A stretch of 36,031 nucleotides of DNA. It comes from a virus. Positions 7,041-34,776 of the stretch are shown piece after piece. The position numbers were made by a program, and so were the translations under genes. The DNA lies in IMG/VR virus record IMGVR_UViG_3300029893_000039, positions 1 to 36,031 of that record. One strand, given 5' to 3'. Below the pieces are notes generated by a model that did not search any database, was not told the DNA's origin, and was given only the letters and a program-made list of their open reading frames with translations. How positions within the stretch are numbered: position 1 is the first letter of the stretch; each line of letters starts with the position of its first letter.

Positions 7041-7130
7041 ATGGAACCGGTCTGGATTTTCGGTGGTGTTGTCGTAAGTGTGCTCAGGGTTATCATGGCG
7101 GCATTTCTACTTCTGATCGCCCCACTGTGA
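7041..7130 (+). CDS. 29-aa hydrophobic micro-ORF between terL and portal
   Basis: GGAGG lies 4 nt upstream of the ATG. It reads MEPVWIFGGVVVSVLRVIMAAFLLLIAPL*. Its TGA overlaps the GTG at 7127 as GTGA. Confidence 0.35.
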   Translation: MEPVWIFGGVVVSVLRVIMAAFLLLIAPL

Positions 7131-10100: not shown

Positions 10101-10110
10101 TGAGTAAATC

Positions 10111-11448
10111 ATGGCTACCAATAACGCCTCCAACTTTGCTTCAGACATTGGCAAGTTCATTCAGAAAAAGACTCTGGAACTGACCCAACGTCAAATCGTC
10201 GTTTCGCAGATCGCGGAACGTGTTGACCTCCCGCGCGGCATGGGTACTTCCTATTACGCGTTCCGTTATGAGCGTGTCCCCCTTCCGTACACGACGCTGG
10301 CCGAAGGCGTTCCTTCGTCCGGCGAAACGATGACCATCACGCAGGTGACTGGCACCGTTGCGCAGTGGGGCGACCTGATCCGCATCACGGATGTGGCGGA
10401 AATGACGATCTACCACCCCGTGTTCAAGAAGGCCATCGAACTTGTTGGCTACCAAGCCACGGAAACCATCGAGCGAAATACCTTCAATGCGATCATGGGT
10501 GGCACGCAGGTCAACTATGTTGGCTCCGTGGGCGCTCGCGCTTCGCTGACTTCTAGCTCCGTCCTGACACCGCACGAACTCAACCGTGCGGCGGGAACCC
10601 TGTTCACCAACGGCGCCCGGTACTACGAGTCTGGCGGCGGCGCAGACATGAAGATGAAGGCTGCGAGTGGCGCGAGAGGCGTTACCCCCGCTGCCGCGCC
10701 GCACTATGTAGCCGTCATCCACCCGTTGGTCGAGCAGGATTTGCGCGAGAACAGCGCCGTGGTCGTTGCATGGCAATATAGCGACATTGGCAAGCTGTAT
10801 AACGCCGAGATCGGTCAGTGGTCGGGTATTCGCTTCACCCGTTCGAACATGGTTCCATCGTGGACTGGCATGGCTGCGGTTAACGGAACCGCTGGGACTG
10901 CTGGCTCGCTGGCAACGGCGACGTATTATGTTCAGGTCACTGCGGCTGATGCGAATACCCAATACGAGACTCGGGTGTACCAAGTTTCGGCGGGGATCAG
11001 CGTCACTGGCCCGAACGGCTCGATCAGCGTTACGGTGCCGTCTACTACTGGCTACACGTACAACGTGTACGTCGGCACGACCACCAGCCCTGCGAACCTC
11101 GGTCTGTCTGCCTCTGGCCCGACGACTGGGCCGCTGTCTGGCAATTCGACCCAGCTAGCTCCCGGAACGACTGCTGTCATCACTGGTATTGGCGTCTCGC
11201 AGACCCCGCCTGCGGCTCCCGCTACCGGAGTGACCGTGTACCCCACGTTCATCTTCGGCAAGGAATCGTTCGCACAGGTCGATCTGTCCTCACTGGAGAC
11301 GTTCTACCTGACTGGCGCAGATAAGTTCGACCCTCAAAACCAGACCCGTGTGGTTTCGTGGAAGGTTTTCTACGGCACGATGATCATGAACAATCAGTTC
11401 TTCATGCGCATCGAATCGTCGTCGGCCTTCTCCCCGACCTTCGGTTAA
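10111..11448 (+). CDS. Major capsid protein (445 aa), N4-gp56-like, with a T/G/S/V-rich insertion
   Basis: It follows the scaffold gene. The N-terminal pattern ...LPRGMGTSYYAFRYERVPLPYTTLAEGVPSSG...WGDLIRITDVAE... resembles N4-type capsid proteins, a family assigned from memory. A strong hairpin follows the gene. Confidence 0.75.
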   Translation: MATNNASNFASDIGKFIQKKTLELTQRQIVVSQIAERVDLPRGMGTSYYAFRYERVPLPYTTLAEGVPSSGETMTITQVTGTVAQWGDLIRITDVAEMTIYHPVFKKAIELVGYQATETIERNTFNAIMGGTQVNYVGSVGARASLTSSSVLTPHELNRAAGTLFTNGARYYESGGGADMKMKAASGARGVTPAAAPHYVAVIHPLVEQDLRENSAVVVAWQYSDIGKLYNAEIGQWSGIRFTRSNMVPSWTGMAAVNGTAGTAGSLATATYYVQVTAADANTQYETRVYQVSAGISVTGPNGSISVTVPSTTGYTYNVYVGTTTSPANLGLSASGPTTGPLSGNSTQLAPGTTAVITGIGVSQTPPAAPATGVTVYPTFIFGKESFAQVDLSSLETFYLTGADKFDPQNQTRVVSWKVFYGTMIMNNQFFMRIESSSAFSPTFG

Positions 11449-15295: not shown

Positions 15296-16096
15296 ATGGC
15301 GATCATCTCACCCCTGACATACACGATTGCCAATGGGCAGGCGGTCGATGCCACGCCGCTGATGGCGGACTTGAACCAGATCGTCAGCAACGTGAACGCG
15401 AACGCCGCAGCCCTGAACGGTAGTACGACGCAGGTATTCGATGTCGCTAGTGCAACGACGAGTACGGAAGCGGTGAACCTGGGTCAGCTTTTCATCGGCA
15501 ACCGCAAAGCTGTTTTCACGGCGAACGGCACTTCCACCGTCCCCGCAGGCGTCACCCAAATATGGGTCAGCGGTTGTGCCGGAGGAGGTGGTGGTGGTGG
15601 TGGTGCTTCTGCTGCCAGTGGAGGAAATGGTGGAGGTGCGGGACAGTCGACACTCAAACAATCTATCAGCGTTTCCCCTGGCGACTCATTAAGTGTGACG
15701 ATAGGAGCCGGTGGAGCAAACGGAGGAACAGGGAATGCAGCAGGCGCGGCAGGAGGTAATACCGTTCTGACCAATACGACGGCATCTACCACGCTGTTGA
15801 CGTTGGCGGGTGGCAGTGGTGGTAACGCTGGAGGAGGTGGTAGTAGCACCAGCAGTTACGCCAATAGCTATGGAGGTTCGGGTTATCCCGCAGGTGGTAA
15901 TGGTTCAATAACCAATGATTTTAGTTATGGCGGTTCCGGTGGGTCTTCCCTTTTTGGAGGGGGTGGAGCGGCTAGTCAGGGTCTTGGATTCGGGGCAGGT
16001 CAAAACGGAGCGGGTTTCGGAGCGGGAGGTGGTGGTGGTAGTGGTGGTCAAGCTGGTGGTAACGGTAGTGCTGGTATCTTAATTGTGGAGTGGTGA
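15296..16096 (+). CDS. Tail fibre protein 2 with a glycine-rich C-terminal domain (266 aa)
   Basis: The N-terminus is MAIISPLTYTIANGQAVDATPLMADLNQIVSNVNANAA. It contains GCAGGGGGGGGASAASGGNGGGAGQ and ends GGNGSAGILIVEW. Confidence 0.75.
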   Translation: MAIISPLTYTIANGQAVDATPLMADLNQIVSNVNANAAALNGSTTQVFDVASATTSTEAVNLGQLFIGNRKAVFTANGTSTVPAGVTQIWVSGCAGGGGGGGGASAASGGNGGGAGQSTLKQSISVSPGDSLSVTIGAGGANGGTGNAAGAAGGNTVLTNTTASTTLLTLAGGSGGNAGGGGSSTSSYANSYGGSGYPAGGNGSITNDFSYGGSGGSSLFGGGGAASQGLGFGAGQNGAGFGAGGGGGSGGQAGGNGSAGILIVEW

Positions 16097-17353: not shown

Positions 17354-17636
17354 GATCGACGTTTCTTTTTTCACTTGGTCCATTATTTTGGGGTTTCTTA
17401 TTGGGTTGGGCCAAGTCTTGGATTCGTCGGAACAACTGTCCTGGCGCATCATCATTGGACGTGCCATTGTGTCGGCAGGTTTGGCGTCCATGGCTCCCGC
17501 GTTGCTCGTCTGGTTTCCAGAAATGCCGCGCATGGCCGAGTTCGCACTTGCCGCCGTGATGGCAAGTCTTGGAACTTCTGCACTACAGGCTATCATTCGG
17601 CGTATCATTACGGGGCTCCCATCCAAGGATTCATGA
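17340..17636 (+). CDS. Holin candidate (98 aa, multi-TM)
   Basis: It has several hydrophobic helices and lies immediately upstream of the endolysin, coupled to it by an ATGA overlap. Confidence 0.6.
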   Translation: MNHDKIDVSFFTWSIILGFLIGLGQVLDSSEQLSWRIIIGRAIVSAGLASMAPALLVWFPEMPRMAEFALAAVMASLGTSALQAIIRRIITGLPSKDS

Positions 17637-18121
17637 TGACAGCGTTCGATGACGCATTTACCGCCCTTATGGGTAACGAAGGGGGTTATAGCAACAACCC
17701 CGCAGACCCCGGCGGCGAGACCATGTGGGGCATCACCAAGCGCGTGGCTGTTGCCAACGGGTATACCGGCACGATGCAAGACTTGCCGCAAGATACGGCG
17801 AAAGCGATTGCAAAATCCGAGTATTGGGATCGTTACTCGTGCGACAAGTTCGACCCGCGCGTGGCGTTTCAAGTTTTTGACGCCGCCTACAACGGCGGTC
17901 ATCCTGCGCAGTGGCTCCAGCAAGCGAGTGGTGCGACAGTGGATGGCATCATCGGGCCGGAAACCATCGCAGCGGTCAACCTGACGCCTCCGCGCGTCCT
18001 TATCATGCGTTTCGTGTCCTACCGGCTCACCTACTTGACGAGTTTGGACACTTGGCCTACTTTCGGCAAAGGATGGGCACGGCGCATTGCCAATAACCTA
18101 ATCAAAGGGGCGACGATATGA
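17633..18121 (+). CDS. Endolysin, GH108 lysozyme plus peptidoglycan-binding domain (162 aa)
   Basis: It contains the GH108 signature LMGNEGGYSNNPADPGGETMWGIT and a C-terminal PG_binding_3-like segment. Track ORF 17375.. trimmed to ATG 17633. Confidence 0.8.
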   Translation: MMTAFDDAFTALMGNEGGYSNNPADPGGETMWGITKRVAVANGYTGTMQDLPQDTAKAIAKSEYWDRYSCDKFDPRVAFQVFDAAYNGGHPAQWLQQASGATVDGIIGPETIAAVNLTPPRVLIMRFVSYRLTYLTSLDTWPTFGKGWARRIANNLIKGATI

Positions 18122-18630
18122 GCTTGACTTGGGCGGATGTTGGGAAAGCTGTCGGCGGGATCGCACCCATTCTCGGTACTGCGCTGGGTGGCCCGGCTGG
18201 CGCTGTCGTCGGCAGTATGATCGCCTCCGCACTTGGGACGAGCGCGACGCCTGATGCGGTCAACACGGCGATGGCAGCAGACCCGACGAATGCGGCGAAA
18301 ATCCTCCAGGTGCAGAACGAGCACGAGGAAAACCTCCGCAAGATGAACTTGGACTATGAGTCCACGTTGGTGCAGGCACAGGCCGGGAATATCCAGGCCG
18401 AAGCCAAGTCGGACTCATGGATGGCTGCAAACTGGCGCCCTATCCTGATGCTGACGTTCACGTTTATCGTGGCGATGAACTACGCCATCCTGCCGATTGT
18501 GTCGTGGTTCGGTGTCCACCAAGCGCCGCTTGTTCTACCGCCCGATATGTGGGACTTGCTCAAGATCGGCGTGGGTGGCTATATCGTCGGTCGCAGTGGC
18601 GAGAAAATCACTCGGAGCCTCAAGTCGTGA
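18118..18630 (+). CDS. 3TM holin-like (GTA-type) / lysis accessory membrane protein (170 aa)
   Basis: It has an N-terminal Gly-zipper (GGIAPILGTALGGPAGAVVGSMIASALG), a coiled-coil middle and C-terminal TM segments. It overlaps the endolysin stop as ATGA. Confidence 0.5.
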   Translation: MSLTWADVGKAVGGIAPILGTALGGPAGAVVGSMIASALGTSATPDAVNTAMAADPTNAAKILQVQNEHEENLRKMNLDYESTLVQAQAGNIQAEAKSDSWMAANWRPILMLTFTFIVAMNYAILPIVSWFGVHQAPLVLPPDMWDLLKIGVGGYIVGRSGEKITRSLKS

Positions 18631-19214
18631 ACTATGCGCTGACTCTAACATCCTCCGGGTGGGCTATCGAGCCGCCAAAAGCTCCACTCGATATTGCAAA
18701 CGCACGGCTCCCACAATGGGCTGTGCGTTTTGTTCCAGGGGATACGCACGGTGACGCCAGAACTCGGCACCATCATCACGCTGTAGAGCAGATCGCTAAG
18801 TTAGAGGGCGACAGAGCAGCACTCTACACGCTACAGCAGAATATCTTTGCGTTGCCTGATGTGGATATGCCGCTCCAGCATGTTTTCGCCCCTGGCCTCT
18901 ATGTGCGCACCATTTACATTCCTGCGCGCGGTGTGATTGTCGGCAAGATTCACAAGCATCGTCACGCCAATGTGTTGAGCCAAGGTAAGGTGGTCATCTT
19001 TACAGAGTTTGGTGGTGTTGAGCGATGGGAAGGCCCGCTTACGATGGTTTCCGAGCCCGGGACAAAGCGCGCTGTCTATGCTGAAACGGACGTATATTGG
19101 ACTACAATCCACCAGAACCCTACGGATACCCAAGATTTGGCCGAATTGGAACGTATGATTATTGCGGAGTCCTACGAGGACTACGAACGTTGGAAACGCG
19201 AATGCGAGGTGTGA
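18627..19214 (+). CDS. Cupin-fold protein with an HxHxH motif (195 aa, GTG start)
   Basis: Its GTG overlaps the upstream TGA (GTGA), with GGAG 9 nt upstream. It contains GKIHKHRHANVLSQGKVVIF...GPLTMVSEPGTKRAVYAETD. Confidence 0.5.
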   Translation: MNYALTLTSSGWAIEPPKAPLDIANARLPQWAVRFVPGDTHGDARTRHHHHAVEQIAKLEGDRAALYTLQQNIFALPDVDMPLQHVFAPGLYVRTIYIPARGVIVGKIHKHRHANVLSQGKVVIFTEFGGVERWEGPLTMVSEPGTKRAVYAETDVYWTTIHQNPTDTQDLAELERMIIAESYEDYERWKRECEV

Positions 19215-19215
19215 T

Positions 19216-20247
19216 ATGACTTGGGGCGCAGTTGGTGCAGCAGCGGTCGGCCTCTTAGGGAATGCCATACTAGGCGGCGGAGGCGGAGGCGGAGGCGGAG
19301 GCAGTTCCGGCGGTGGCTATCAAGGTAGCTCCTATCTGCCGCCGAACCTCACCACGGCAGCCAGCAACGAAATGGCGTTGATTCCGCAGCTCGGAAGCTA
19401 CAACTATTACATACAGAACGCCGGTACAGCACAAGGTCTTGCAAACCAAGCGGCATATAGCCCGTACTACGGCCAGGCGCTATCTGGCGCGCAGCAGGCT
19501 GCCACTGCGGGCGTTGGTCAAGGCTATCAATCCCTTGGTGCGGCAAACCAGTTATACGGACAGATGGGGCAGATTCCGGGGCTGGAAAACCAACTCACGC
19601 AGTCCGCGTTCGACCCGCAGAACCAACTTTATAGCTACCTGCAAGCACAGAACGCCAACCAGACCAACGCCGATCTGGCTTCGCGCGGGCTTGGCATGAG
19701 CGGAGCAGGGGCGGCTATTGCTGCACAGCAGAACCAGCTATTCAACCAGAATTGGCAGAACAATCTGCTTCAACGACAACTGCAAGGTGTGCGAGGCGTG
19801 AGCGCGCTCAACCAGTCCGCAGGCCAACTCGGCTCAGTAGGGTCGTCGCTCGGCACACAGGGCACGAACCTCATAAACCAGTCCAGCGCGATGCCATACC
19901 AAACTCAGCTCAATGCGTTGCAGAGCCAGTTAGGTCTTTATGGGACGGCGGGGCAGTTCGGGCAGCAGGCCATGCTCCCTTACCAGCAACAGATTTCAGA
20001 CTACAACGCCTATCAAGGGCTTGGCTCACCAAGTGCTCAGTTGGGACAGCAGAACCAACTTAACCAAGCCTCACAGGGCTACGGACAAGCAATAGGCCAA
20101 TTAGCCGCGCCAATCGGAAACGCCATTGGCGGTGCTATATCCAACTGGGCCTCGGGGTTTGGTACCTCACCCAATAGCGGGGACTACCTAGGCCAAAGTA
20201 GCGGCTATAACCCTAATTTTAATATCTTGCCGAGTGGGAGCTACTGA
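19216..20247 (+). CDS. Internal virion / ejection protein A (343 aa), Q/N/G-rich
   Basis: Track ORF trimmed to ATG 19216 (RBS GAGGTG). It has an N-terminal TM-like segment, a Gly9 tract and Q/N-rich low-complexity sequence. Confidence 0.55.
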   Translation: MTWGAVGAAAVGLLGNAILGGGGGGGGGGSSGGGYQGSSYLPPNLTTAASNEMALIPQLGSYNYYIQNAGTAQGLANQAAYSPYYGQALSGAQQAATAGVGQGYQSLGAANQLYGQMGQIPGLENQLTQSAFDPQNQLYSYLQAQNANQTNADLASRGLGMSGAGAAIAAQQNQLFNQNWQNNLLQRQLQGVRGVSALNQSAGQLGSVGSSLGTQGTNLINQSSAMPYQTQLNALQSQLGLYGTAGQFGQQAMLPYQQQISDYNAYQGLGSPSAQLGQQNQLNQASQGYGQAIGQLAAPIGNAIGGAISNWASGFGTSPNSGDYLGQSSGYNPNFNILPSGSY

Positions 20248-21989
20248 TGAACATCGGCGAATACATGCGGCTTGGTAATGTCCTGCGCGGCGCTTACACC
20301 GCGCAACAACAGAACATTGTCAACCAGCAGATCCAGCAGCGAATCAATGACGCTATAGCGACGGATGCGCTTAACCGGCGAATCGCAAACCAGAAGTACC
20401 AGGACTATCTCACTGGCCTGCAGGGCGCTGGGGCATATTGGCGCGAACTCGGGCAACAGCCTATAGCTACGCCGGTTGGAAGCTCGCCTCAAGCTCCTGC
20501 ACCAGCACCGGGACAGAATAGCGCGCAGCAACCTGCACCTCAAGGCTCGGCGGTGCCATCCCCCGTGCCAATTCCGGGAGCAACACTGATGCAAACGCCA
20601 TTGCCGCCCGCGGCGCAGGCACAATCGCAGCCATTGCAGCAATTCATGCCCGCGCCTCCGGGGCAGCAAAACCCGTACCAAATCCCGCCCGCTACACAGC
20701 AGATACGCGATAGAGAGGCGGTTTCGATCATGCAGCGTGAACTGCAAAGCCAACAGGCTGCGCTGCAACAGGCGACGACGCCGCAGCAGCAAGCGAACAT
20801 CCAAGGGAATATCGCCGCGCTCCAACGCGAGATTGTTCGTATGAGCGCGAGTGCTGGGCCTGCCTTGGGCGCGTCTGCGCAGCAAGTGCCTTCGTCCGCC
20901 CCCGGCGCTCCGCAAGGGGGTTTAGATAGCTCACTCTCCGGGATGCAGGGCACTTACGGGCGCGTGCTCGCGCTGGCGCAGAGTAATCAGGTCATCAACC
21001 TCGCGGGGAAAGCCGCAGCGGAGCTTATCAAGGCGCACCCTGACTGGACAGACCGGCAGTTGTCCCTGGCGATGGACAACATCTACCCGGCGCTGTCTGA
21101 GCAGTCCAAGAACATGCTCCAACTCGCCGGGCTGAGCAACACGGAGATGTTTAAGACAGTTAGCGCCTTATTGCGCCAACAGGCATTAGGTGCGCGCTAT
21201 CCGGGTATGGGCGGCCAGACCCCCTATTCCCCGCAAGCAGTTGACGCGGCGGCGCAAGCGTGGAAAAACGGTGTGAAGCCCCCTGTAGCGATGATCCCGT
21301 GGGTACTCCAAGCCCACCCTGAACTGGGCGGTCAGGTTGCGCAAGGGCAAGTTAACTTGACGAGCCAAAAGGCCGCTGCTGGAGCGTCCGCTACCGCGCC
21401 TATCAAGGTACAACAGGCGGCGGACACCGCAGTTGCTACTGCTGTGCCGAGAGCGACAGGTTCCGCGCTTGCACAGGTGCAGAAGAACTTGTCCGCCATC
21501 GAGCCAGCATATCAAGCCATGGACGCGAACTTCGAGGGGCTTATCCAAGCTGCCCAAAAATACGGCCTCGGCCCGGCCACGCCCGTCAATTCGCTTCTTA
21601 ACCGTATGCGCAAGATGGGCGACCCGAGCTACACGACATACGAAGTGTTCCTTAAGGGCGTCCAGAAAGAGTTTGGCAAAGTGCTGCAAGGCGCGACAGG
21701 CGCGCGCGGTGTAAGTGTCTCAGCGATGAAGGATGCTGAGGGCACGCTGTCACCTAATATGACGCTGGGTCAGTTGGAAGCCGCTGCCACCGCGCTCAAA
21801 ACCGAAGGCGGCAACGTGCTCCAAAGCCTGCGCGACCAGAAGCAGCACCTTACGCAGCAGTTGGGCGGAAACACGAATAGCGCTTCGGGGCAGCTGCCTG
21901 AGATTATTTCCCAAGCGCAGTATGATGCGCTCCCCAAAGGGGCGCAATATATGCACGACGGAAAGGTCTACACTAAAGGGGGTGCGTGA
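20247..21989 (+). CDS. Internal virion / ejection protein B (580 aa), Q/P/A-rich
   Basis: Track ORF with a TGATG junction. Assigned from composition and position. Confidence 0.55.
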   Translation: MNIGEYMRLGNVLRGAYTAQQQNIVNQQIQQRINDAIATDALNRRIANQKYQDYLTGLQGAGAYWRELGQQPIATPVGSSPQAPAPAPGQNSAQQPAPQGSAVPSPVPIPGATLMQTPLPPAAQAQSQPLQQFMPAPPGQQNPYQIPPATQQIRDREAVSIMQRELQSQQAALQQATTPQQQANIQGNIAALQREIVRMSASAGPALGASAQQVPSSAPGAPQGGLDSSLSGMQGTYGRVLALAQSNQVINLAGKAAAELIKAHPDWTDRQLSLAMDNIYPALSEQSKNMLQLAGLSNTEMFKTVSALLRQQALGARYPGMGGQTPYSPQAVDAAAQAWKNGVKPPVAMIPWVLQAHPELGGQVAQGQVNLTSQKAAAGASATAPIKVQQAADTAVATAVPRATGSALAQVQKNLSAIEPAYQAMDANFEGLIQAAQKYGLGPATPVNSLLNRMRKMGDPSYTTYEVFLKGVQKEFGKVLQGATGARGVSVSAMKDAEGTLSPNMTLGQLEAAATALKTEGGNVLQSLRDQKQHLTQQLGGNTNSASGQLPEIISQAQYDALPKGAQYMHDGKVYTKGGA

Positions 21990-23641
21990 TGGCGTGGACT
22001 CCGCCTGCTTCTGATGCTACTCCCGCATGGACTCCGCCAGCAACGGATGCACCGGCAACCCAAAAAGCTTCCGCGCCTACTGTAGCTGCACCCAAAGGGG
22101 CCGGATGGTCGTGGATGGATAAGCTGCGCAACGCAGCTAGTGCGACGGGACAAAGCATCGAGGACTTGGCAAAATCCGCAGCGGTGCCTTACCTCAACGC
22201 GGCAGGGTTGCTGAGCCATGTGCCTATTCGCGCGATCAGCGACATCGGGCAACAGGCACAGGCAGATGCGAGTGCCTTGCAGAAGAATGTCAGCCCGATT
22301 TCGCAGATCGTCGGTGGTCTTATTGGCGGAGCACCTTTAGCGGTGGCGACGGGCGCTGCGGCTGCGCCGTTAGCGGCTGGGCCGATTAGTGCCGCAGCAG
22401 CAGGAATTGGAACTGGTGCAGCGCTGGGCGCAGCAACGTCTAATGAGGGATCACGGGGCGCGGGTGCGATGCTCGGCGCTGCTGGCGGAGCAATACCTGG
22501 GCTACTAGGCGGCGCGAAGTATGGTATTGGAAAGCTATTCGCTCCGGGCATCAAGGACGCACAAGACGTTGCTGCTGTCCAAGCTGCGCAAGCACACGGC
22601 CTCATCGTTCCGCCCAGCGAGTTGACGGGAACCCCGCAAGTTGGCCGCGAGATGTCGGGCAGCTTCGGGCCATTTGCCCAAAAAGTACCCGAGCAAAACA
22701 TTCACACTTTCGGGCGTCAAGTGTTCAATACGTTGGGGCTTAAGGGCGAGACGAATGTCAACGCACAAAGCGTACAACGGGCCATATCCAAAATTGGCAA
22801 CGATTTGCAGACACAGATCGGCCCTGCGAGGCTCACGATTGACCCGAAAGTCGCCGCAGCCGTAGATAGTGCCATCACGCAGAACAAGCCCATGCTCGCT
22901 GATATGGCCGTTGATCCAGAAAGCAAAGGGGTAGCCTCCGCGCTGTACCGGGCGCAGGGCGGCGACACAATCAGCGGGAAGGACTACTTCAAGGTTTCCC
23001 AATGGCTGCGCAATAAAGCTGCGACAACAAATGATGGGGCAACCAGAGATGCGTTGTCCAGTCTAGAAAAAGCGTGGCAAAACGGAGCGTCAGGAGATAC
23101 TGCGCGTGTAGGCCGCGCATTGCGCGTCTACCGCACGCGCATGTCGCAGGCGCTCGACTTGCAAAGCATGATGACCGACCCAGGGGTCGCAGCTGGCACT
23201 AAGCCTGTCAACCCGGCCAAGCTGTATACGACAATGGCGAAGGGTAAGCCATCCGTCCTCTCGGGGCAAAGCCCTTACAAGATTGCTCCGCTCGCGCAGT
23301 CCGCAGCGGTCACACAAGCGTTCGGGACGGGCACTAAAATCCCAGGGTGGGCTGAGCGCGCGGCCAGCCTAGAAGGGCTTTCCGCGCTCGGAGACGGAAA
23401 ATTGAGCCTCCCCTATACGGGAAAGCTCAATTTAGCGCAGAAAGCCCTGTTCGGTTCAGCGGGGGTGCTTACGCGCTCTGCGCTCAAGGAACTCGCCACG
23501 CCTGAGGGGCAGAAAATGCTCTTGGGCGGCTATAAACTCACACCACAGCAGTTGCAAAGCATCCTGCGCTATAGCTCCCTCGCTGGCACGACAGGTTCTA
23601 CAGCGGCAAACACCTCAACCCCCTCACAGACGTTGCCCTGA
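21989..23641 (+). CDS. Internal virion / ejection protein C (about 550 aa)
   Basis: ATG 21989 with AAGGGGG 6 nt upstream. GTG 21986 is an alternative start. It has a Gly/Ala-rich hydrophobic N-terminal third. Confidence 0.55.
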   Translation: MAWTPPASDATPAWTPPATDAPATQKASAPTVAAPKGAGWSWMDKLRNAASATGQSIEDLAKSAAVPYLNAAGLLSHVPIRAISDIGQQAQADASALQKNVSPISQIVGGLIGGAPLAVATGAAAAPLAAGPISAAAAGIGTGAALGAATSNEGSRGAGAMLGAAGGAIPGLLGGAKYGIGKLFAPGIKDAQDVAAVQAAQAHGLIVPPSELTGTPQVGREMSGSFGPFAQKVPEQNIHTFGRQVFNTLGLKGETNVNAQSVQRAISKIGNDLQTQIGPARLTIDPKVAAAVDSAITQNKPMLADMAVDPESKGVASALYRAQGGDTISGKDYFKVSQWLRNKAATTNDGATRDALSSLEKAWQNGASGDTARVGRALRVYRTRMSQALDLQSMMTDPGVAAGTKPVNPAKLYTTMAKGKPSVLSGQSPYKIAPLAQSAAVTQAFGTGTKIPGWAERAASLEGLSALGDGKLSLPYTGKLNLAQKALFGSAGVLTRSALKELATPEGQKMLLGGYKLTPQQLQSILRYSSLAGTTGSTAANTSTPSQTLP

Positions 23642-24951
23642 TGAAAATTCTCGTCATCGATCCTTCAGCCCTCGCCCTCGATTTCTGTCTGCGTAGCATG
23701 TCCGAAGGTGCGCAAGTCAGGTGGTTTATCCGCAACAAGCCCGAAGGGCAGATCACAGTGGGTGACGGCCTCGTGCAAAAAGTCCAGCACTGGGAGCAGC
23801 ATATGAACTGGGCAGACCTCGTGTTCCTGCCCGACAACTCGGTCTATATGGCTGACTTGGAAAAATGGCGCCAGCGCGGCTACCCGATCTACGGGGCGAA
23901 CGCATTCACTGCGGAATGGGAACTCGACCGACAGGTGGGCATGGACGTGCTGGAAGCGCATGGCATCAAGCTCATGGAGGGCGAGACGTTTACCAGCTAC
24001 GACAAGGCCATTGCCTATGTGAAGTCCACGATGGGCCGCTATGTTTCCAAGCCGTTCGGGGACGCCGACCGAAGCTTATCCTACGTCAGCAAAGGGCCTG
24101 CGGATATGGTCTATATGCTGGAGAAGTGGAAACGCACGGGCAAACGTGTTCCGGGGTTTATCATGCAGCGGTTCCAGCCCGGTATTGAGATGGCAGTAGG
24201 GGCTTGGGTCGGCCCGCATGGATTCGCGTCGCCGTGGTGCGAGAATTTCGAGCACAAGAAACTGATGAATGATGACTGCGGGCCTAACACGGGCGAGATG
24301 GGCACTGTCGTCTATTACACCGAGAAGTCCAAGCTCGCAGACAAGGTACTTAAGCCGCTGGAAGATTACCTCGTTCGCGCGGGTCATATGGGCTTCGTGG
24401 ACGTTGCCGTTATCATTGACGATAAAGGGACGCCGTGGCCGCTGGAATTCACCATGCGCCCCGGTTGGCCTATCTTCAATATCCAGCAACAACTGCACAG
24501 GAGCACCGCATCATGGATGCTGGAAAGCCTCAACGGAGCGTCAATTTGGACGAACTTCTCGACGGATTCGCCAGCGACGGGCGTCGTAATGGCGATCCCG
24601 GACTTCCCGTACAACCGACTGAGTCGCAAGGAGGTATCGGGGACGCCGATCTACAACTTGGACAAAGTGAGCGCGAACATTCACCCGTGCGAGCTAAAAG
24701 TGGGCAAGGTTCCCGTCGAGGTCGGCCAAAAACTCGTGGAGCAGACGCATCTGGTGAGCGCTGGAACCTACCTGCTGGTGGCAGCAGCAGCCGCGCAGTC
24801 TTTGGCGAAAAGCCGGGAAGCGGCGTATGCGGCCTTGGAGTCGTTGTCGGTGCCGAACTCCCCGATCTACAGAACGGACATTGGCAAGCGCCTGAATACC
24901 CAATTGCCCAAGTTGCAGAAGATGGGCTACGCGACGAGCCTACGCCTGTAG
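23641..24951 (+). CDS. PurD-like ATP-grasp ligase (436 aa), non-canonical N-terminal motif
   Basis: Compared by eye with E. coli PurD, recalled from memory. [23 protein letters not shown] matches [47 protein letters not shown] matches [35 protein letters not shown] matches GVVMAAGGYPG. ...YRTDIG matches ...CRKDIG. The N-terminus [15 protein letters not shown] replaces MKVLVIGNGGREHAL. Confidence 0.75.
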   Translation: [436 protein letters not shown]

Positions 24952-25067: not shown

Positions 25068-25232
25068 ATGCAGAAGGACGCGGCAACCAGCGTCATCGGC
25101 ATGAGCATCAAGGCCGATGAGAGCCGCTTCCGCGTACAAAGCGAGTCAGCTATCGTCGCTATTTTGCAGGAGGTTCGGGCGTTGAAGGCACCGACACAGC
25201 CTGCAATCGAGGTTCAAGCGGCTTCCTCCTGA
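25068..25232 (+). CDS. Possible small protein at the 3' end of the late arm (54 aa from ATG 25068; the frame is open from 24951 without a canonical start)
   Basis: The protein-like sequence EDKPNERLTRLVGKSLRKLEQILDIEPSPWDSDYVKLLAMQKDAATSVIGMSIKADESRFRVQSESAIVAILQEVRALKAPTQPAIEVQAASS* begins exactly at the ATP-grasp stop. The only ATG is at 25068, and it has no SD. Confidence 0.3.
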   Translation: MQKDAATSVIGMSIKADESRFRVQSESAIVAILQEVRALKAPTQPAIEVQAASS

Positions 25233-27700
25233 ACTTCGGGCATTTCCATATCCAGCTTTGTCGTGTCAATTTCCACGCATGTGGTCTGCCCCTGCGGGGG
25301 AAGGCCAACAGCCCCGCGTGTGATGGTAATGCGGCGCTCACCGAACATCACGCCAAGCCGTGTCAGCTCGGCGCGGAACTCGCTCCAGTCCATGCGATAG
25401 GTCAACACATACCGGCGCAGCGAGCGCAGGTCGATGAATAGGTGTTTCGTTGCCTTCTCGTAGCGCATCAAATAAGGCGCTTTGGTGTGCGCGATGAGCA
25501 TCACGACGTTCTGGTCATTCGTCTGAATGCAGTGGTCGATGTTGTCGTTGATATAGTGGGTCAGAACCTCCTCAATGGAGATGCCGAACGACCGGGCATG
25601 ACTGCGAGCGGCGACGATCAGCCCTTTGCCAAACTGATAGACCGCGCCCAGGTCAACTTCGAGTTGCAGGCACTTGTTGAGGATCGCGCCCATGGTGACA
25701 GCGGCGGCAACCATGTTCACGCGAATGCGTTCTTCCGTGCTAGCGCGCAAGTCCTCTTGCAACTTGCTCTTGGCCTTCTCCAGCTCACGAGCGATAACCT
25801 CTTGATGATCTACGAGGTACTGTGCCAGCATGTGCCCAGCAGCCCCGGCATTGGCAAGTGTCTCGCGCTTCATGGCGTCACCATCCTGGAACTTGGTGTT
25901 TTCCGGCAGGTACATGCGCATCTCCAGCACGCGGAAGGCTTCGGCCACAGACCCCACATCGAGCAACTTCTCCAGGATGGGCGCATTACTGGAACTGGTC
26001 AGGATAGTGTGCCACTCAGGCGCCATCTCGCGCATGCCGCCTGAGCGATCTAGGCGGCGCTTGTCACGGCCTTCTGATACGTCATAGGCCAGGACGGCGA
26101 GCTTCTCCGCGCTGAGTTTCGTCAGTTCCTCGGCCTGCACTGGAAGGTTGTGCATGATGGACAGGAACACGATGCGGGCGTTCTCCGTGTCCTGCGCCTT
26201 GCTGAACGCTGCTTCGACATTCCCGAACACGCTAGCGACCGCAGCCTGCACCGTGGACTTTCCCTGGCCGGATGGGCCAACAATGGAGAACACGCCACCA
26301 CGCTCGCCCGTCAGGTGCATCAGCACGGCGGCCAGCGACATGACAAAAGCGAACCGCTGCAAGTCGTTGTGCATCAGAGGCTGCACTGCCTGTGACCATG
26401 CCTGCCATGTGCCTTGCAATGGCATATAGCGGGCTAAGTTCGCCGCATGGCTTTCCAGATGGACGTAGTGGGGGTTCTCACCGCGCTTGTAAATGCGGTT
26501 GCCAATCAAGAACGAGCCATCGGGCTGCCATCCAAATTGCTTATAGCTTTGCATCACTTTCTGATCCTTCTCTAGTTTTTCCTTGCTGGATATGAGAAAC
26601 TGCTTTACCGCAGCCAACTTGCGCCCCGTGCAGGAAATGCCGATGTTGTTAAGCCAGACCTCGCAGTCCTTGGCAATCTGTTGCATGGTCAGCAGATGCT
26701 TGCTCTCTGTGCCGTTGCGAACTGTTACCTCGATGTACCGCTGTTCCTGAACACCTGGAAGTCGGACGACGTTGGTCACGGCCACGGCGTAGTCGAGCAA
26801 ATCTGACCAGCTCTCGCCATCTTCGGTGCCGACGGCCATCTGCAACTTTCCGCCCCGCAGCCGGAACCCTCCTGGCATGAACTCGTTCAGCCCTTCGGTT
26901 TCCTTGACGATAGGCTCTGGCTCGATGCCTGCGCGCTCCTTCTTGCGCAATATGTCCAGCACTTCCTGCTCATCCAGCGGCGGGTGGCAGTGGGCGACGT
27001 TGAATGCTAGTAGTTCGCGCTCAAGATCGTCTCCCTTCGCTCCGCTTTTAATCATCGCGTAGGCGGCGTTGCTGACATAGGTGTTGCGCCCACCTTGGGC
27101 GTGCATGCCAAGGGCCGCAGCGGCCAGCGATGAGGGTTTGACAGGCTGGTTACGCGGGGTAGCGCGTATCATGTCCAGCAGCCGCGCCGGGAACACGGGC
27201 AAGTCCCCCAGCGGCTGCAAGCCATTCAGCCAGTGGTATTCCCACTCGTCGCCAGCATCGTCCACAACGCGGCTGGGCGGCAGGACATCCTGACCACCGG
27301 CTGCGCGCAGCTCGAACCCATGCGCATGCAAAGGGATCGTGCGCAGACCCTCCGGGGCGCGGAACAACGCCTTCCAGCGGTTCGGGCGCCCGCTCGTCCA
27401 GCGCGGGACGCTCGTCTTGATCGTCTCCAGCGTAGATTCTGACAGCCCTTGCTGCGCCCACCAAGCCAGAAACCTCGGCTCGTCATCTACATCTAGACAG
27501 CATGTTCCGCTCAGGCCGTGGTTGATGCCGACGTTACCCGCATGCAGTTTCCCCAGATCGGTGCATCCTTTCCTCAGCCATCCTGATGTTCTTGGCCCCT
27601 TAGTGTGGGCCGGTATGGCGACAAGAGCCATACCCATTTGTAGGTATTGTTCGATCATGGTCGTAGTGGATGGGGGCGAGAACCCCCATCTTAGACTCAT
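25214..27700 (-). CDS. Primase-polymerase (AEP prim-pol N-domain) / P-loop helicase fusion (828 aa)
   Basis: The N-terminus LVAIPAHTKGPRTSGW...GINHGLSGTCCLDVDD is prim-pol-like. There is a Walker A motif IVGPSGQGKST. It overlaps the upstream gene as ATGA. Confidence 0.8.
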   Translation of the reverse strand: MSLRWGFSPPSTTTMIEQYLQMGMALVAIPAHTKGPRTSGWLRKGCTDLGKLHAGNVGINHGLSGTCCLDVDDEPRFLAWWAQQGLSESTLETIKTSVPRWTSGRPNRWKALFRAPEGLRTIPLHAHGFELRAAGGQDVLPPSRVVDDAGDEWEYHWLNGLQPLGDLPVFPARLLDMIRATPRNQPVKPSSLAAAALGMHAQGGRNTYVSNAAYAMIKSGAKGDDLERELLAFNVAHCHPPLDEQEVLDILRKKERAGIEPEPIVKETEGLNEFMPGGFRLRGGKLQMAVGTEDGESWSDLLDYAVAVTNVVRLPGVQEQRYIEVTVRNGTESKHLLTMQQIAKDCEVWLNNIGISCTGRKLAAVKQFLISSKEKLEKDQKVMQSYKQFGWQPDGSFLIGNRIYKRGENPHYVHLESHAANLARYMPLQGTWQAWSQAVQPLMHNDLQRFAFVMSLAAVLMHLTGERGGVFSIVGPSGQGKSTVQAAVASVFGNVEAAFSKAQDTENARIVFLSIMHNLPVQAEELTKLSAEKLAVLAYDVSEGRDKRRLDRSGGMREMAPEWHTILTSSSNAPILEKLLDVGSVAEAFRVLEMRMYLPENTKFQDGDAMKRETLANAGAAGHMLAQYLVDHQEVIARELEKAKSKLQEDLRASTEERIRVNMVAAAVTMGAILNKCLQLEVDLGAVYQFGKGLIVAARSHARSFGISIEEVLTHYINDNIDHCIQTNDQNVVMLIAHTKAPYLMRYEKATKHLFIDLRSLRRYVLTYRMDWSEFRAELTRLGVMFGERRITITRGAVGLPPQGQTTCVEIDTTKLDMEMPEVQEEAA

Positions 27701-31968: not shown

Positions 31969-32021
31969 GCATAGCTGACCGCGAACGCCACCAGCGTAAT
32001 AATCCAGAATACGCCGCTCAT
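31965..32021 (-). CDS. 18-aa hydrophobic micro-ORF coupling the polymerase to the next gene, speculative
   Basis: AAGGAG lies 8 nt upstream. It reads MSGVFWIITLVAFAVSYA*. There are ATGA overlaps at both ends. Confidence 0.3.
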   Translation of the reverse strand: MSGVFWIITLVAFAVSYA

Positions 32022-34633
32022 TTTGAATACTCCTTCGCATATCCACCTGCGCAGTCCAACGGTACACCTTCGGCATAATCTGGCGCGGAACGCATGACGG
32101 CCTGCGCAAAGCCGAGTGCGTCATCTGCTTCGTCCTCGCGGGCGAGAAACACAACTTCGTCGTGCGTCATCGTCGCCACTTGGTACTTCTGCGCGATGAC
32201 CAGCATCTGGTCGGCCACAATGTCACGCGCGATGGCTTGAACAATGTTTTCCACCAGCGATGCGCCATAGATGCGCTGTTTCGCACCGTACTCAAACCCG
32301 TCACTGGTCAACCGCAAGTCAGGATACGATAGCCAGCGGCCCGAGGGCAAGCGAAGTTTTTGGTAGGATGTCACGATGCCGTGCTGCCAGTCGATGCGCT
32401 CTTCTTGCATCATGGCGCGCAGCATACGATCCGCGCTGCGCCACAGTGCGCGGATTGCAGTGTATGTGCTCCGGTAGGTTGCTACATACCCTGCCGCGTC
32501 GTCAAGCGTCGTGCTTGGTTGCTTGAGAGCAATCTGCGCGTGCAACTTGACGTGGCCGACGCCATACCCAAGTCCGAGAATGCAGTTATGAACAATCACT
32601 GGACCCAAGTCCGTCATCACCGTAAACCGATGGTTCGGACCGCAGTTGAGCAGATCGTAGACTGGCAATTTCTCGCTCAAGCGCAAGGATTCGTTGCGAC
32701 AAGTCGTTAGCTTTTCTGCGGGTGGCGATGTTTTCTTTTCGGGTGACAAACCTGACGTTCCCTGGAGCGTAAGGCCCGTCAACATTGATCCGGTCAAGCT
32801 CAAGCTCTGGAACATCCCACCCTGGAATGGTTTGTATGTACCGAAGAAACGCTGATCGGTCATCTCTCCATTCTTGGCAGACATAAATTCCTCGCTCGCC
32901 ATAACTCGAAAAGGCTGCGTTCCGAGGGTTGTGGCACCGGCCAATGCACGAGGATAGGCGGTTAAGCAGCCGTGTGCGGTGCCCGTCATCCGCGAGCGCG
33001 TCCTTATATTTCCAGTATCGTTTTTTGCTGGCAGCGACTTTCGCGCACGCGTTGCAGCGAGTAGACCTCCCAGATAGGAGATTGTGCCGGTCAACCATCC
33101 CTTCGTTCCCGCAAGAGCATCTGACATACGGGTGCCACCCAGCCATTTGCCCGCTTGATGGGCGAACCATCGGACGCCAGTCGAGGATGGTAAGGTCGCC
33201 GTAAACAGCGCCGACGCTAGCAGGGAACGGTTTTTGAGGACCTCTGACCACTCCGCCCATCCATGTTCCGTCAGGATTTCGTGGTCCGAAGTAGCGTTTA
33301 CGCCGATCCCCCGCAATGTTGGTTTCAGGCCCTGAAACCTCACGCCGCCATGCTTTACCCATGATTCTCCATCCCACACCAAGTCCGTTTCCTTGACCCG
33401 AATAATAGGCTTCCAGCCATTGTTGGTCAAGACTTTGGTGTTGGCTGCTAGGCACGTCTTGCCGACGAAGCGCCGCGCGTCGTCAATCTGCTGCCCAGGC
33501 CAGATTCGCATGGCGAACCGAACGTACACGTCGTCGCCATCAGCGAACTGCTGGAGCAACTCATTCTCTCCCGCCAGCCACGCGAGCACGCGCGCCTCGA
33601 TCTGCGACGAGTCCACAACCACCAGGACATATCCCTCAGGTGCCGTTAGACACTTGCGCAGCGCAGACCCACGGTTGAGATTCTGCATGTTGACGCCGTC
33701 CCATCCAGACCATCGCCCCGTATGCGCCCCGTGATACTTGAGCGGCACAGGCATGACGCCACGTCCAGCCACACCGATGAACTTCTGCGTGCGACGCAGC
33801 TCGGACACGCTCTTAGCTGCAAGCCTTCCGCGCACTAGATGCCCCACATGGGGGTTCTCCAGCAACGCCAGGAAGTCAGTGTCTGTCTTGCGGAAAGTTC
33901 CGGGCACAGCCACGCCATGCGCTGCGAGGACGGATGCGAACTGCGGATTGCTCATCAGCACGCTTTCAAGCACGCCAGCCGAGGCAATAGCTTCATCGCG
34001 CTGCGCCTCAAGCTCAGCCATCCGGTCGTGCAATAAACGTGCATTGACTTCCAGCACCGGCTCGGTGAACAGACGTGTAGTGAGGTCGATCAGCGCCAAC
34101 TCGCGCGCCGCGCGCACGCCGCCCAACGTTGTGACCATGTCCGCGCTCAGGCGCTTGTATAGCTTGCGCAGCAGGTTCACGTCCTGCACGCAATACTCGG
34201 CAAGTTGCTGTTCCAGCAGAGGGTCAAGATCACGCACACCCAGCGTCTTCGCTAGAGCGTCACCTTTGGCGCCCAGGTCGTAATGCTCGGAGAGAGCGGC
34301 CAGTGTATGCTTGCCGTGGTAACGCACGATGCGGCTCATAGCCAGCGTGTCATGGGTGCGCTTTGGCGCGACACCGAAGCGCCAGGACAGGATTGCCATG
34401 TCGAACGGCGCGTTGTGAGCAACCCATATAGCCCCGGGATGCTCGCTATGCAACGCTGACAGCGCAGACTGCACTTGCGCAGGTGGAACCCAATATGGTG
34501 TTGTGTCGTCCACGGCAATGCTGACGCCATGCACCTTGAACCGCTCGTCACGGATGTATTCTTCCGTGCTCATTTTGGTGAGCGAGTACGCACGGTCATA
34601 GTAGGTTTCGAAGTCGATGTAGATAGTCGTCAT
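32018..34633 (-). CDS. Family-A DNA polymerase with 3'-5' exonuclease domain, interrupted by an intein (871 aa precursor)
   Basis: Exonuclease motifs are IYIDFETYYD, WVAHNAPFDMAIL and EYCVQDVNLL. Motif A is VVVDSSQIEARVLAWLAGE. Motif B is split as RRFVGKT / intein / CILGLGYGVG. The start is ATG 34633 (GGAG 8 nt upstream, ATGA overlap) rather than the track start at 34735. Confidence 0.9.
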   Translation of the reverse strand: MTTIYIDFETYYDRAYSLTKMSTEEYIRDERFKVHGVSIAVDDTTPYWVPPAQVQSALSALHSEHPGAIWVAHNAPFDMAILSWRFGVAPKRTHDTLAMSRIVRYHGKHTLAALSEHYDLGAKGDALAKTLGVRDLDPLLEQQLAEYCVQDVNLLRKLYKRLSADMVTTLGGVRAARELALIDLTTRLFTEPVLEVNARLLHDRMAELEAQRDEAIASAGVLESVLMSNPQFASVLAAHGVAVPGTFRKTDTDFLALLENPHVGHLVRGRLAAKSVSELRRTQKFIGVAGRGVMPVPLKYHGAHTGRWSGWDGVNMQNLNRGSALRKCLTAPEGYVLVVVDSSQIEARVLAWLAGENELLQQFADGDDVYVRFAMRIWPGQQIDDARRFVGKTCLAANTKVLTNNGWKPIIRVKETDLVWDGESWVKHGGVRFQGLKPTLRGIGVNATSDHEILTEHGWAEWSEVLKNRSLLASALFTATLPSSTGVRWFAHQAGKWLGGTRMSDALAGTKGWLTGTISYLGGLLAATRARKSLPAKNDTGNIRTRSRMTGTAHGCLTAYPRALAGATTLGTQPFRVMASEEFMSAKNGEMTDQRFFGTYKPFQGGMFQSLSLTGSMLTGLTLQGTSGLSPEKKTSPPAEKLTTCRNESLRLSEKLPVYDLLNCGPNHRFTVMTDLGPVIVHNCILGLGYGVGHVKLHAQIALKQPSTTLDDAAGYVATYRSTYTAIRALWRSADRMLRAMMQEERIDWQHGIVTSYQKLRLPSGRWLSYPDLRLTSDGFEYGAKQRIYGASLVENIVQAIARDIVADQMLVIAQKYQVATMTHDEVVFLAREDEADDALGFAQAVMRSAPDYAEGVPLDCAGGYAKEYSK
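32585..33454 (-). mobile_element. Intein (290 aa) inserted in polymerase motif B
   Basis: In the polymerase frame, block A is CLAANTKVLTNNGWKPI and block B is GVNATSDHEILTEHGW. Blocks F and G are LPVYDLLNCGPNHRF...GPVIVHN, followed by the +1 Cys. Confidence 0.8.
32586..33455 (-). CDS. HNH/zinc-ribbon homing-endonuclease ORF in an alternative frame of the intein (289 codons open; plausible internal start ATG 33362)
   Basis: The alternative frame reads VYGDLTILDW...YVRCSCGNEGMVDRHNLLSGRSTRCNAC...IGRCHNPRNAAFSSYGERGIYVCQEW...ELDRINVDGPYAPGNVRFVTRKEN. GGAG lies 4 nt upstream of ATG 33362. The stop TAA is formed by the His-Asn codons cAT AAc. Confidence 0.6.
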   Translation of the reverse strand: MPSSQHQSLDQQWLEAYYSGQGNGLGVGWRIMGKAWRREVSGPETNIAGDRRKRYFGPRNPDGTWMGGVVRGPQKPFPASVGAVYGDLTILDWRPMVRPSSGQMAGWHPYVRCSCGNEGMVDRHNLLSGRSTRCNACAKVAASKKRYWKYKDALADDGHRTRLLNRLSSCIGRCHNPRNAAFSSYGERGIYVCQEWRDDRSAFLRYIQTIPGWDVPELELDRINVDGPYAPGNVRFVTRKENIATRRKANDLSQRILALEREIASLRSAQLRSEPSVYGDDGLGSSDCS

Positions 34634-34776
34634 GCGCGCCGCTCCACAGTCTTGTCGAGCAGCCAGCCGGTGCGCGTCATGCGAACCATCTGCACACCGC
34701 GTAACCAGCGTACTTGCAGGGTTCGTGTCGGCCAAAGCCTGCGCGCATCATGGCGCAGCGTCATCAGTGATTTCAT
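34630..34776 (-). CDS. Small basic protein (48 aa)
   Basis: RBS is GGAGAAAG. It reads MKSLMTLRHDARRLWPTRTLQVRWLRGVQMVRMTRTGWLLDKTVERRA*. There are ATGA overlaps at both ends. Confidence 0.4.
   Translation of the reverse strand: MKSLMTLRHDARRLWPTRTLQVRWLRGVQMVRMTRTGWLLDKTVERRA

Follow-up and report, generated by a model that had tools for sequence, protein, structure and literature searches.

We analysed a stretch of viral DNA of 36,031 nucleotides (nt), positions 1 to 36,031 of the IMG/VR record IMGVR_UViG_3300029893_000039 (henceforth the window), and concentrated on a single gene at 23641..24951 on the + strand that encodes a PurD-paralog ATP-grasp ligase (henceforth the ligase). The gene begins with ATG, ends with TAG and encodes 436 amino acids (aa) in the PurD domain order N-B-A-C. 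A first-pass annotation, made from the sequence alone, had described the product as a PurD-like enzyme with a non-canonical substrate motif, encoded at the end of a virion or ejection-protein operon. The window has 58% GC and resembles a podovirus genome, in which the ligase gene has ejection-type and replication genes as neighbours. The + arm carries the genes for the terminase (5060-7039), portal (7127-9232), major capsid protein (10111-11448), tail fibre (15296-16096) and endolysin and holin (17375-18630), followed by a Gly/Gln/Ala-rich trio (19162-23641) and then by the ligase gene. A convergent - arm lies beyond it, with a primase/helicase gene (25214-27700) and then genes for a helicase, an exonuclease and DNA polymerase.

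The trio, all on the + strand, consists of a Gly/Gln/Ala-rich protein of 361 aa (19162..20247), a putative ejection protein of the gp14/gp7 class; a protein of 580 aa (20247..21989), putatively of the gp15/gp20 class going purely by size and synteny; and a protein of 551 aa (21986..23641), putatively of the gp16 class by size, synteny and its counterparts in relatives, whose gene is coupled to that of the ligase. The TGA stop codon of this third open reading frame (ORF) occupies 23639-23641 and the ligase ATG starts at 23641, in the context cTGATGa with a 1-nt overlap. The TGATG junction of the first-pass annotation is therefore present, at 23639..23643 (+), as a stop/start overlap of the type associated with translational coupling. 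The 361-aa protein opens with a hydrophobic segment, after which come ten consecutive glycines (GGGGGGGGGGSSGGG), and the remainder is rich in Gln, Asn, Ala and Gly.

Profile and structure comparisons, which the first-pass annotation had proposed, put PurD at the top everywhere and established the ligase as a full-length, four-domain PurD homolog, with a resemblance far beyond chance. In Pfam, GARS_A was matched above its gathering score (E 1.8e-7, 31.7 bits against 27), GARS_C fell below its own (2.3e-6, 28.3 bits against 34.8) and GARS_N gave no match at E<=1. The NCBIfam purD model TIGR00877 aligned with residues 74-417 only and scored 68.3 bits (5.6e-19) against an equivalog cutoff of 288. 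A search of PDB sequences returned PurD chains only, the best at 9.5e-14 and aligned from about residue 64, and identity to PurD is about 19-21%. A hidden Markov model (HMM) of the family, built from 70 relatives, spans residues 1-425 of E. coli PurD with 179 bits. The AlphaFold2 model computed from the family alignment has a mean predicted local distance difference test score (pLDDT) of 96.7 and a predicted template-modelling score (pTM) of 0.94. Foldseek comparison of this model with the PDB gave PurD for all of the 15 best hits (E 1.2e-30 to 3e-23, template-modelling (TM) score 0.68-0.76), with PurK, biotin carboxylase and PurT following near 1e-18. The ligase thus shares its N-B-A-C architecture and an end-to-end alignment with PurD (EC 6.3.4.13; E. 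coli 1GSO, Aquifex 2YW2, human GARS 2QK4). The motifs by which the first-pass annotation had recognised PurD are all in place, namely GPNTGEMG at residues 214-221, IDDKG at 259-263, LEFTMRPG at 268-275, GVVMA at 314-318 and TDIG at 412-415, and FEHKK is present at 203-207. TDIG had been called terminal and is near-terminal, with 21 more residues after it.

We placed published PurD residues on 70 family members by hmmalign, and all counts below are out of these 70. From human GARS we mapped R13, E14, D217, K219, R220, R292, D295, E297, R385 and the B-loop GLAAGK (roles in PMC2978367), and from the Aquifex enzyme K103, K143, E185, E192, K214, D212, R287, E292 and E100 (roles in PMC8880213). Residues that bind MgATP and stabilise the acyl-phosphate proved to be under strong constraint. 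With E. coli PurD numbering before the stroke and ligase numbering after it, E102/E94 (70/70), K105/R97 (68/70), K145/K137 (70/70), E194/E183 (69/70), D214/E204 (69/70), K216/K206 (69/70), G231/G221 (70/70), E286/E269 (69/70), R290/R273 (69/70), R416/R411 (70/70) and D418/D413 (68/70) are kept, as is the GPNTG loop. R217 of E. coli PurD is K207 in the ligase (K in 49 and R in 14 members), and Q176, a further residue of the ATP-grasp core, is found in 64/70. The PurD counterpart of R273 stabilises the carboxylate or acyl-phosphate (PMC2978367). On the + strand, the segment E94 to R97, counterpart of the E-G-S-K of PurD with its Mg and ATP contacts, lies at 23920..23931; the ATP-binding K137 falls in aa 135-148 (24043..24084); E204, K206 and the GPNTG-E-MG loop fall in aa 202-222 (24244..24306); and R411 and D413 belong to IYRTDIG (aa 409-415, 24865..24885), the YR.DIG motif that the C-domain has in common with PurD.

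By contrast, every published contact to the glycine amine and to phosphoribosylamine (PRA) is replaced in the ligase family. The N-domain motif VIGNGGREHAL of PurD, in which Arg serves the anion site and Glu the PRA ribose (PMC2978367), corresponds to aa 5-15 of the ligase (23653..23685, +), a region without a GARS_N match for which the family consensus is IDxxGxxLDxA. GGREHA itself reads S-A-L-A-L-D in the window, with R11 changed to L11 (L/D/E/V in the family), E12 to A12 (G/A/S), E. coli H13 to Leu and A14 to D14 (49/70), so that the replacement noted in the first-pass annotation is real and family-wide. The B-loop GLAAGKG, whose GLAAGK is conserved in all GARS enzymes (PMC2978367), is remodelled to GD.DK.L (GD.DK.LSY over aa 135-148; GD-ADRSL in the window), position 144 being K in 50 and R in 8 members. 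At aa 266-278 (24436..24474, +) the signature ExTxRxG[WY]P takes the place of EFNCRFGDPE. Here RFGDPE, covered by the PROSITE signature PS00184 of GARS (R[LF]GDPE, quoted in PMC3261824) and supplying the Asp and Glu that bind the glycine amine (PMC2978367), has become R-P-G-W-P-I, with D293 changed to W276 (Y in 32 and W in 30 members) and E295 to I278 (A/T/L/I). The Mg-ligand N288 of PurD is T271 in the ligase family (66/70), while E269 of the same E-x-N motif is kept, and PurD G229 is E219 (64/70). In the C-domain, R383, the Arg of the GGR motif (human R385), is Y377 in the strand VSAGTYLLV (aa 372-380, 24754..24780, +) and Tyr in 51/70. The stand-ins at the lost contacts are thus aromatic (W276, Y377), small or hydrophobic, or newly acidic (D14, E219). 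A family-specific acidic residue, D254, is conserved together with E219 near the replaced Mg-ligand Asn, for which the two might compensate. The resulting signature, IDxxGxxLDxA ... NFEHKKL ... GPxTGEMGT ... PLEFTxRxG[WY]P ... YRTDIG, holds down to 27-30% identity.

Judged by these residues, the ligase is almost certainly not a glycinamide ribonucleotide (GAR) synthetase. The alternative of an ordinary auxiliary metabolic gene, whose product would be a genuine if divergent GAR synthetase and would raise purine synthesis, is suggested by PurD being the best match in every library and by the name 'phosphoribosylamine--glycine ligase' that the JGI pipeline gives to its relatives. Such an enzyme is, however, hard to reconcile with a TIGR00877 score of 68 bits where 288 are called for, with the missing GARS_N match, or with the replacement of the PS00184 Asp, GGREHA, GLAAGK and the C-domain Arg. 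Furthermore, PRA is extremely labile, and a hand-over from PurF has been proposed for it (PMC2978367). PHROG and Pfam scans of window ORFs turned up no other purine-pathway gene, as the first-pass annotation had supposed. Very similar proteins have been judged before: the 'extra' PurD-like proteins of haloarchaea, Hlac_1553 and rrnAC0307, are without GARS_N, the Mg-binding site and the R[LF]GDPE Asp, and have been considered not to be GAR synthetases (PMC3261824). The ligase shows the same three defects, a likeness drawn from the description of those proteins only. They differ from it in being chromosomal archaeal genes, and the cellular branch described below is about 30% identical to the ligase and forms a separate clade. 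We found no later literature on them. A strict PurD active site was not recovered on proper alignment, the ligase lies below the equivalog cutoff, and it sits in a phage virion module without purine-pathway context; we therefore consider a GAR synthetase function extremely unlikely.

The pocket changes also bear on the substrates. The first-pass annotation had expected a different acceptor, which the map supports, and donor and acceptor probably both differ from those of PurD. As both Arg residues are lost, the acceptor probably carries no phosphate, and the new acidic D14 and E219 suggest that it may be cationic; W276 and Y377 would line the former glycine/PRA site.

A second line of evidence for the importance of the ATP-binding core comes from inteins. 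Among the 150 best representatives of the family, 20 are 700-1123 aa long and are split at about residue 222-225 or 256-272. These long forms contain inteins, with an N-terminal Cys, a LAGLIDADG domain and a C-terminal Asn, inserted exactly at GEMG|T, after the last Gly of the loop (G221), and at EFT|C, after T271 (relatives including P0121, P0178 and P0211, the last with both). P0155 has a mini-intein at a third site, before TGEMG. In the ligase of the window, which has no intein, the two main sites correspond to aa 221/222 and 271/272 (nt ~24303 and ~24453). Because inteins home into constrained catalytic sites, they provide independent evidence that the GEMG and EFT loops matter. From the conserved core we consider it very likely that the ligase is catalytically active. 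A catalytically dead PurD-fold protein that serves as a structural element or scaffold inside the capsid would fit the change of Asn288 to Thr, the loss of the glycine-rich B-loop and the replacement of both substrate pockets. It would leave unexplained why ten ATP/acyl-phosphate residues are kept in at least 68 of the 70 members, why inteins target exactly the catalytic loops, and why the replacements are themselves conserved (T271 in 66/70, E219 in 64/70), which suggests a remodelled rather than a decayed site. A dead protein is accordingly a very improbable explanation.

The family is large. The ligase had 2934 matches in a collection of 5.8 billion proteins, and an exhaustive search of the representatives at 50% identity gave 201 clusters at E<1e-30 and 795 at E<1e-10. 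PHROGs v4 contains no family that matches the ligase, and a BFVD structure search returned no close structure, only generic ATP-grasp folds with a best TM score of 0.42. Among GenBank phages we found one relative, in the metagenomic record MW202796.1, at 43% identity and unannotated there. It lies at the end of that record (42140-43456; L001 12001-13317) in a stretch without an annotated coding sequence, preceded by three 'hypothetical proteins'; a 'stabilization protein' and a GNAT acetyltransferase are encoded at a greater distance upstream. A literature search for a named phage PurD-like protein produced nothing beyond a remark of 2011 on the haloarchaeal paralogs. Three relatives, P0232 (L169 1841-3442), P0237 (L168 277-1848) and the one at L170 5148-6704, have a C-terminal extension of about 100 aa with a DxDxT-like motif (GFDLDKTLA or GFDFHGTLA). 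We considered a haloacid dehalogenase (HAD) phosphatase for the extension of P0232 and P0237 and did not retain it, as there is no Pfam or PDB match and the assignment is a guess at the level of a motif. In another relative, P0147, a low-complexity protein like the first upstream protein of the window seems to be fused to the ligase; its C-terminus looks frameshifted, and the fusion may be an assembly error.

We next turned to the position of the gene in phage genomes. We compared a close clade of 80 IMG/VR loci with 48-92% identity to the ligase, and in 80/80 of them the gene is the last of the structural arm and faces the replication arm. Across this clade the ligase retains 48-53% identity, the capsid protein 47-51%, the helicase 33-42% and the primase 23-28%, and the two proteins immediately upstream of the ligase are undetectable between relatives. 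Being about as conserved as the capsid protein, the ligase gene is part of the core rather than a sporadic accessory. We then scored adjacency as a same-strand ORF of at least 450 aa that ends no more than 150 nt upstream of the ligase gene, for 63 close loci and 44 loci from a divergent viral set (55 loci, 25-40% identity to the ligase). Such an ORF directly precedes the gene in 43 of the 63 close and 22 of the 44 divergent loci, with a gap of 10 nt or less in 37 of the 43 and 18 of the 22, and the commonest spacing is a 4-nt ATGA overlap.

Annotated relatives point to what the upstream proteins may be. Two prophage-like loci, in Paraburkholderia sp. C35 (L088; NZ_QBUY01000010.1, about 58.8-80.2 kb) and in a Rhodanobacteraceae genome (L091), and a temperate-looking contig (L087) have upstream trios of 271/526/713, 229/454/597 and 261/512/993 aa, respectively. 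Ejection proteins are usually recognised by size and synteny, and these sizes agree with those tabulated for the gp14/gp15/gp16 classes, 229/471/609 in P22, 230/449/719 in CUS-3 and 229/499/708 in epsilon15 (PMC8954989). The first gene of each trio matches phrog_598 'DNA ejection' (E 1e-37, 7e-39 and 8e-27 in L088, L091 and L087), and the third matches a 'DNA ejection protein' in L088 and, in L087, has an SLT domain and a match to 'internal virion protein with endolysin domain'. A tailspike gene follows the ligase gene in L087 and lies a few genes downstream in L088. Thus, the description of the three upstream proteins of the window as internal virion proteins agrees with their size, their synteny and the counterparts in annotated relatives, although none of the three has a PHROG or Pfam match of its own.

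The divergent set extends the link in several directions. Its commonest gene order is a homolog of the first upstream protein of the window (313-503 aa), a protein of 250-680 aa, a protein of 900-1500 aa and the ligase, so that in divergent phages, too, homologs of the first upstream protein keep their place two genes ahead of the ligase. The large upstream proteins that we tested included one 'internal virion protein', two with transglycosylase or lysin domains and one with a tape-measure-like N-terminus. Elsewhere the ligase gene directly follows the portal gene (L170, phrog_156, 1.8e-16; L172, phrog_18178, 1.9e-53) or a P22 gp10-like 'Phage_stabilise' gene (L169). Finally, one relative, P0212 (L002 2818-6528, from a 65 kb contig of ENA ERZ27245387), is a single uninterrupted ORF of 1236 aa that joins portal, ligase and Phage_Mu_F directly after terL. 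We conclude that several independent arrangements couple the ligase, both physically and at the level of translation, to genes for capsid-internal proteins, which bears out the virion or ejection-operon link of the first-pass annotation.

Homologs also exist well outside phages. Scanning one genome per GTDB species revealed at least 568 ligase-family loci, of which the best matches are two prophage-like ones and the rest are about 30-33% identical to the ligase. Carriers include the complete chromosome of Bdellovibrio sp. HCB288 (L092), Haloferax namakaokahaiae (L124), many DPANN archaea, bacteria of the candidate phyla radiation (CPR/Patescibacteria), Gemmatimonadota, Omnitrophota, Nitrososphaera and Methanosarcinales (loci including L093-L167, L106 and L114). 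The family signature is retained in this cellular branch, which is likely mis-annotated as purD. At four cellular loci Pfam identified unrelated neighbours of housekeeping type, namely a class I tRNA synthetase, cytidylate kinase, HIT, P-type ATPase, RIO kinase, GH3, topoisomerase VI-B, a hybrid histidine kinase, SDR and UbiA. BLAST clustering of the neighbours at 62 loci found no recurrent operon partner; two apparent clusters were spurious, arising from ORFs read in the wrong frame of high-GC DNA. On one cellular-type contig (L086, GCA_018812625.1, ~10001-11281) the family member lies between giant ORFs of more than 3000 and more than 6000 aa, with a pyruvoyl-dependent arginine decarboxylase and an amidohydrolase nearby. 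This is the one locus that hints at a connection with polyamines or agmatine, and nothing similar was seen elsewhere. In a rough neighbour-joining (NJ) tree, one clade unites the window with the phages of the ejection-cassette type. The phage versions from the portal slot and from the fusion are basal to a second clade, the crown of which mixes archaea and bacteria, and this implies frequent transfer of the gene.

Because of this cellular branch, a ubiquitous cellular substrate is favoured over a phage protein, and a role in modifying virion proteins, which the first-pass annotation had suggested, is weakened; the role of the ligase stays an inference. An enzyme acting at assembly, which before or in the course of packaging would ligate an amino acid or amine to the ejection or internal proteins or to the DNA end next to the portal, would make good sense of the tight coupling to ejection-protein genes, and a portal fusion would site it where protein and DNA enter. 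Protein-modifying ATP-grasp enzymes are known as well, in the RimK and TTL classes. Against such an enzyme, the upstream proteins evolve too fast to be detected between relatives whereas the ligase stays about 50% identical, the cellular homologs have no phage proteins nearby, and the closest fold is that of PurD, a small-molecule enzyme, rather than that of RimK or TTL; we regard it as improbable.

The same cellular homologs speak for a late-expressed cytoplasmic enzyme that is never packaged and acts in the producing cell on a metabolite or host macromolecule, for takeover, anti-defence or precursor supply, the place at the end of the operon reflecting timing only. Their housekeeping contexts show an activity that operates free in the cytoplasm on a ubiquitous substrate; moreover, the protein of the window has no detectable packaging signal or fusion, and there is no ATP inside a sealed capsid. 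Were the unconfirmed DxDxT-like extension seen in two relatives a phosphatase, it would point to a phospho-metabolite. Timing does not, however, explain the overlap-coupled place after the largest ejection protein, the slot after the portal or the portal-MuF fusion, and on balance we think a purely cytoplasmic enzyme unlikely, if a serious contender.

We favour, tentatively and at somewhat less than an even chance, a reading in which the ligase is a member of a PurD-descended ATP-grasp family, distinct from GAR synthetase, that belongs to the set of capsid-internal or ejected proteins. The two gene slots and the portal-MuF fusion are what suggest a capsid-internal location and delivery to the next host; physical association with the virion is a little less than an even bet. 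The ligase would be made late, through translational coupling to the last ejection-protein gene, and would be packaged near the portal among the ejection proteins. Delivered into the cytoplasm of the next host, where ATP is available, it would find its target in a molecule that bacteria and archaea share, activating a carboxylate with ATP and joining it to a nucleophile, with both substrates unlike those of PurD. On this reading the gene probably encodes a virion-linked ligase of a new kind and is not a metabolic helper. A more specific version, in which the ligase is a fourth, enzymatic member of the ejection set that is packed next to the portal, is injected with the genome and, at the onset of infection, draws on host ATP to ligate a carboxylate onto a ubiquitous host molecule, is doubtful. 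The target could be a nucleotide-derived signal, a polyamine, or a component of translation or the envelope; modification would disarm a defence or prime DNA entry, and the homologs of DPANN, CPR and Bdellovibrio would carry out this chemistry within their own cells.

Several observations weigh against a virion-delivered enzyme. In Bdellovibrio, Haloferax and DPANN the sister branch has housekeeping genes around it, which argues for an activity independent of the virion, and the phylogeny that separates the branches is the rough NJ tree. The three proteins upstream of the ligase in the window (361, 580 and 551 aa) are those without PHROG or Pfam matches of their own, and in P22 the slot after the gp16-class gene (the sieA/immI region) also gathers non-virion accessory genes. 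We rejected the portal-ligase-MuF arrangement as a recurrent design, as 65 relatives of P0212 are portal-MuF fusions (680-957 aa) without the ligase insert, some of them with other unexplained inserts. No ligase was found in a cultured phage, the sole GenBank phage relative being metagenomic. Catalysis itself could be altered or lost, given the change of the Mg-ligand N288 to Thr and the remodelled B-loop.

The arrangement in the window resembles the podovirus ejection cassette (T7 gp14-gp15-gp16; P22 gp7-gp20-gp16; PMC8954989), to which the ligase gene adds a co-oriented and coupled next gene after the small, medium and large members. Known cassettes differ in having three members, and the sole enzymatic activity described for them is peptidoglycan hydrolysis. 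Our literature search found no ATP-grasp enzyme among phage ejection proteins. Few injected phage enzymes are known: T4 Alt, which is the prototype, the virion RNA polymerases of N4 and phiKZ, and the lytic domains of gp16-class proteins. If the favoured reading is true, an ATP-dependent ligase delivered with the genome would represent a new class of early effector and would extend the chemistry of ejection cassettes beyond cell-wall cleavage. A second parallel is provided by MuF-linked domains and by polyvalent proteins of late modules, for which packaging and injection as effectors have been argued (PMC5512222). The cargo domains linked to MuF/SPP1 gp7 are matched by the P0212 fusion and the relatives in the post-portal slot, whereas the ligase of the window stands alone, without MuF. 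A term search of that study found no PurD-type ATP-grasp among its effector domains. The ATP-grasp enzyme of LUZ24-like and Pa11virus phages was also considered and set aside as a different family, of 291 aa, encoded in an early or replication module and not PurD-like. Like the ligase it is a phage-encoded ATP-grasp enzyme with unassigned substrates, but it always occurs with amidoligase, GATase and GGCT partners and is not associated with virion genes.

Neither the superfamily nor the fold is new, and the non-GARS nature of related archaeal paralogs had been remarked on in 2011. What is new concerns the family as a whole: how large it is, its signature, its core-gene status across a sizeable group of uncultured podophages, the set position in which it closes the ejection cassette or follows the portal, the intein insertions in the catalytic loops and the systematic mis-annotation as purD. 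Routine naming of these proteins as 'phosphoribosylamine--glycine ligase' inflates the counts of viral auxiliary metabolic genes. In a family with at least 200 clusters at 50% identity, metagenomic proteins in the thousands and 568 or more matches in species-representative genomes, it also credits a purine step to DPANN archaea and CPR bacteria, groups usually said to have no de novo purine synthesis. The ligase family further offers a clean natural case of an ATP-grasp scaffold that keeps its phosphoryl-transfer core and exchanges both substrate pockets. Since Paraburkholderia sp. C35 is an isolate whose prophage carries the gene, packaging is directly testable.

Promoter and terminator scans near the ligase gene gave counts at chance level and were uninformative. 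Between the ligase stop codon and the convergent primase/helicase gene there is a possible ORF of 54 aa (25069-25232, +), which overlaps the 3' end of the latter by 19 nt. The DNA polymerase ORF of the window (32018-34735) contains an insert of about 291 aa with the hallmarks of an intein (32582-33454, - strand), which starts at ...FVGKT|CLAANTKVLT and ends at ...GPVIVHN|CILGLGYG, and PHROGs calls aa 447-729 of this ORF an 'endonuclease' (phrog_93).

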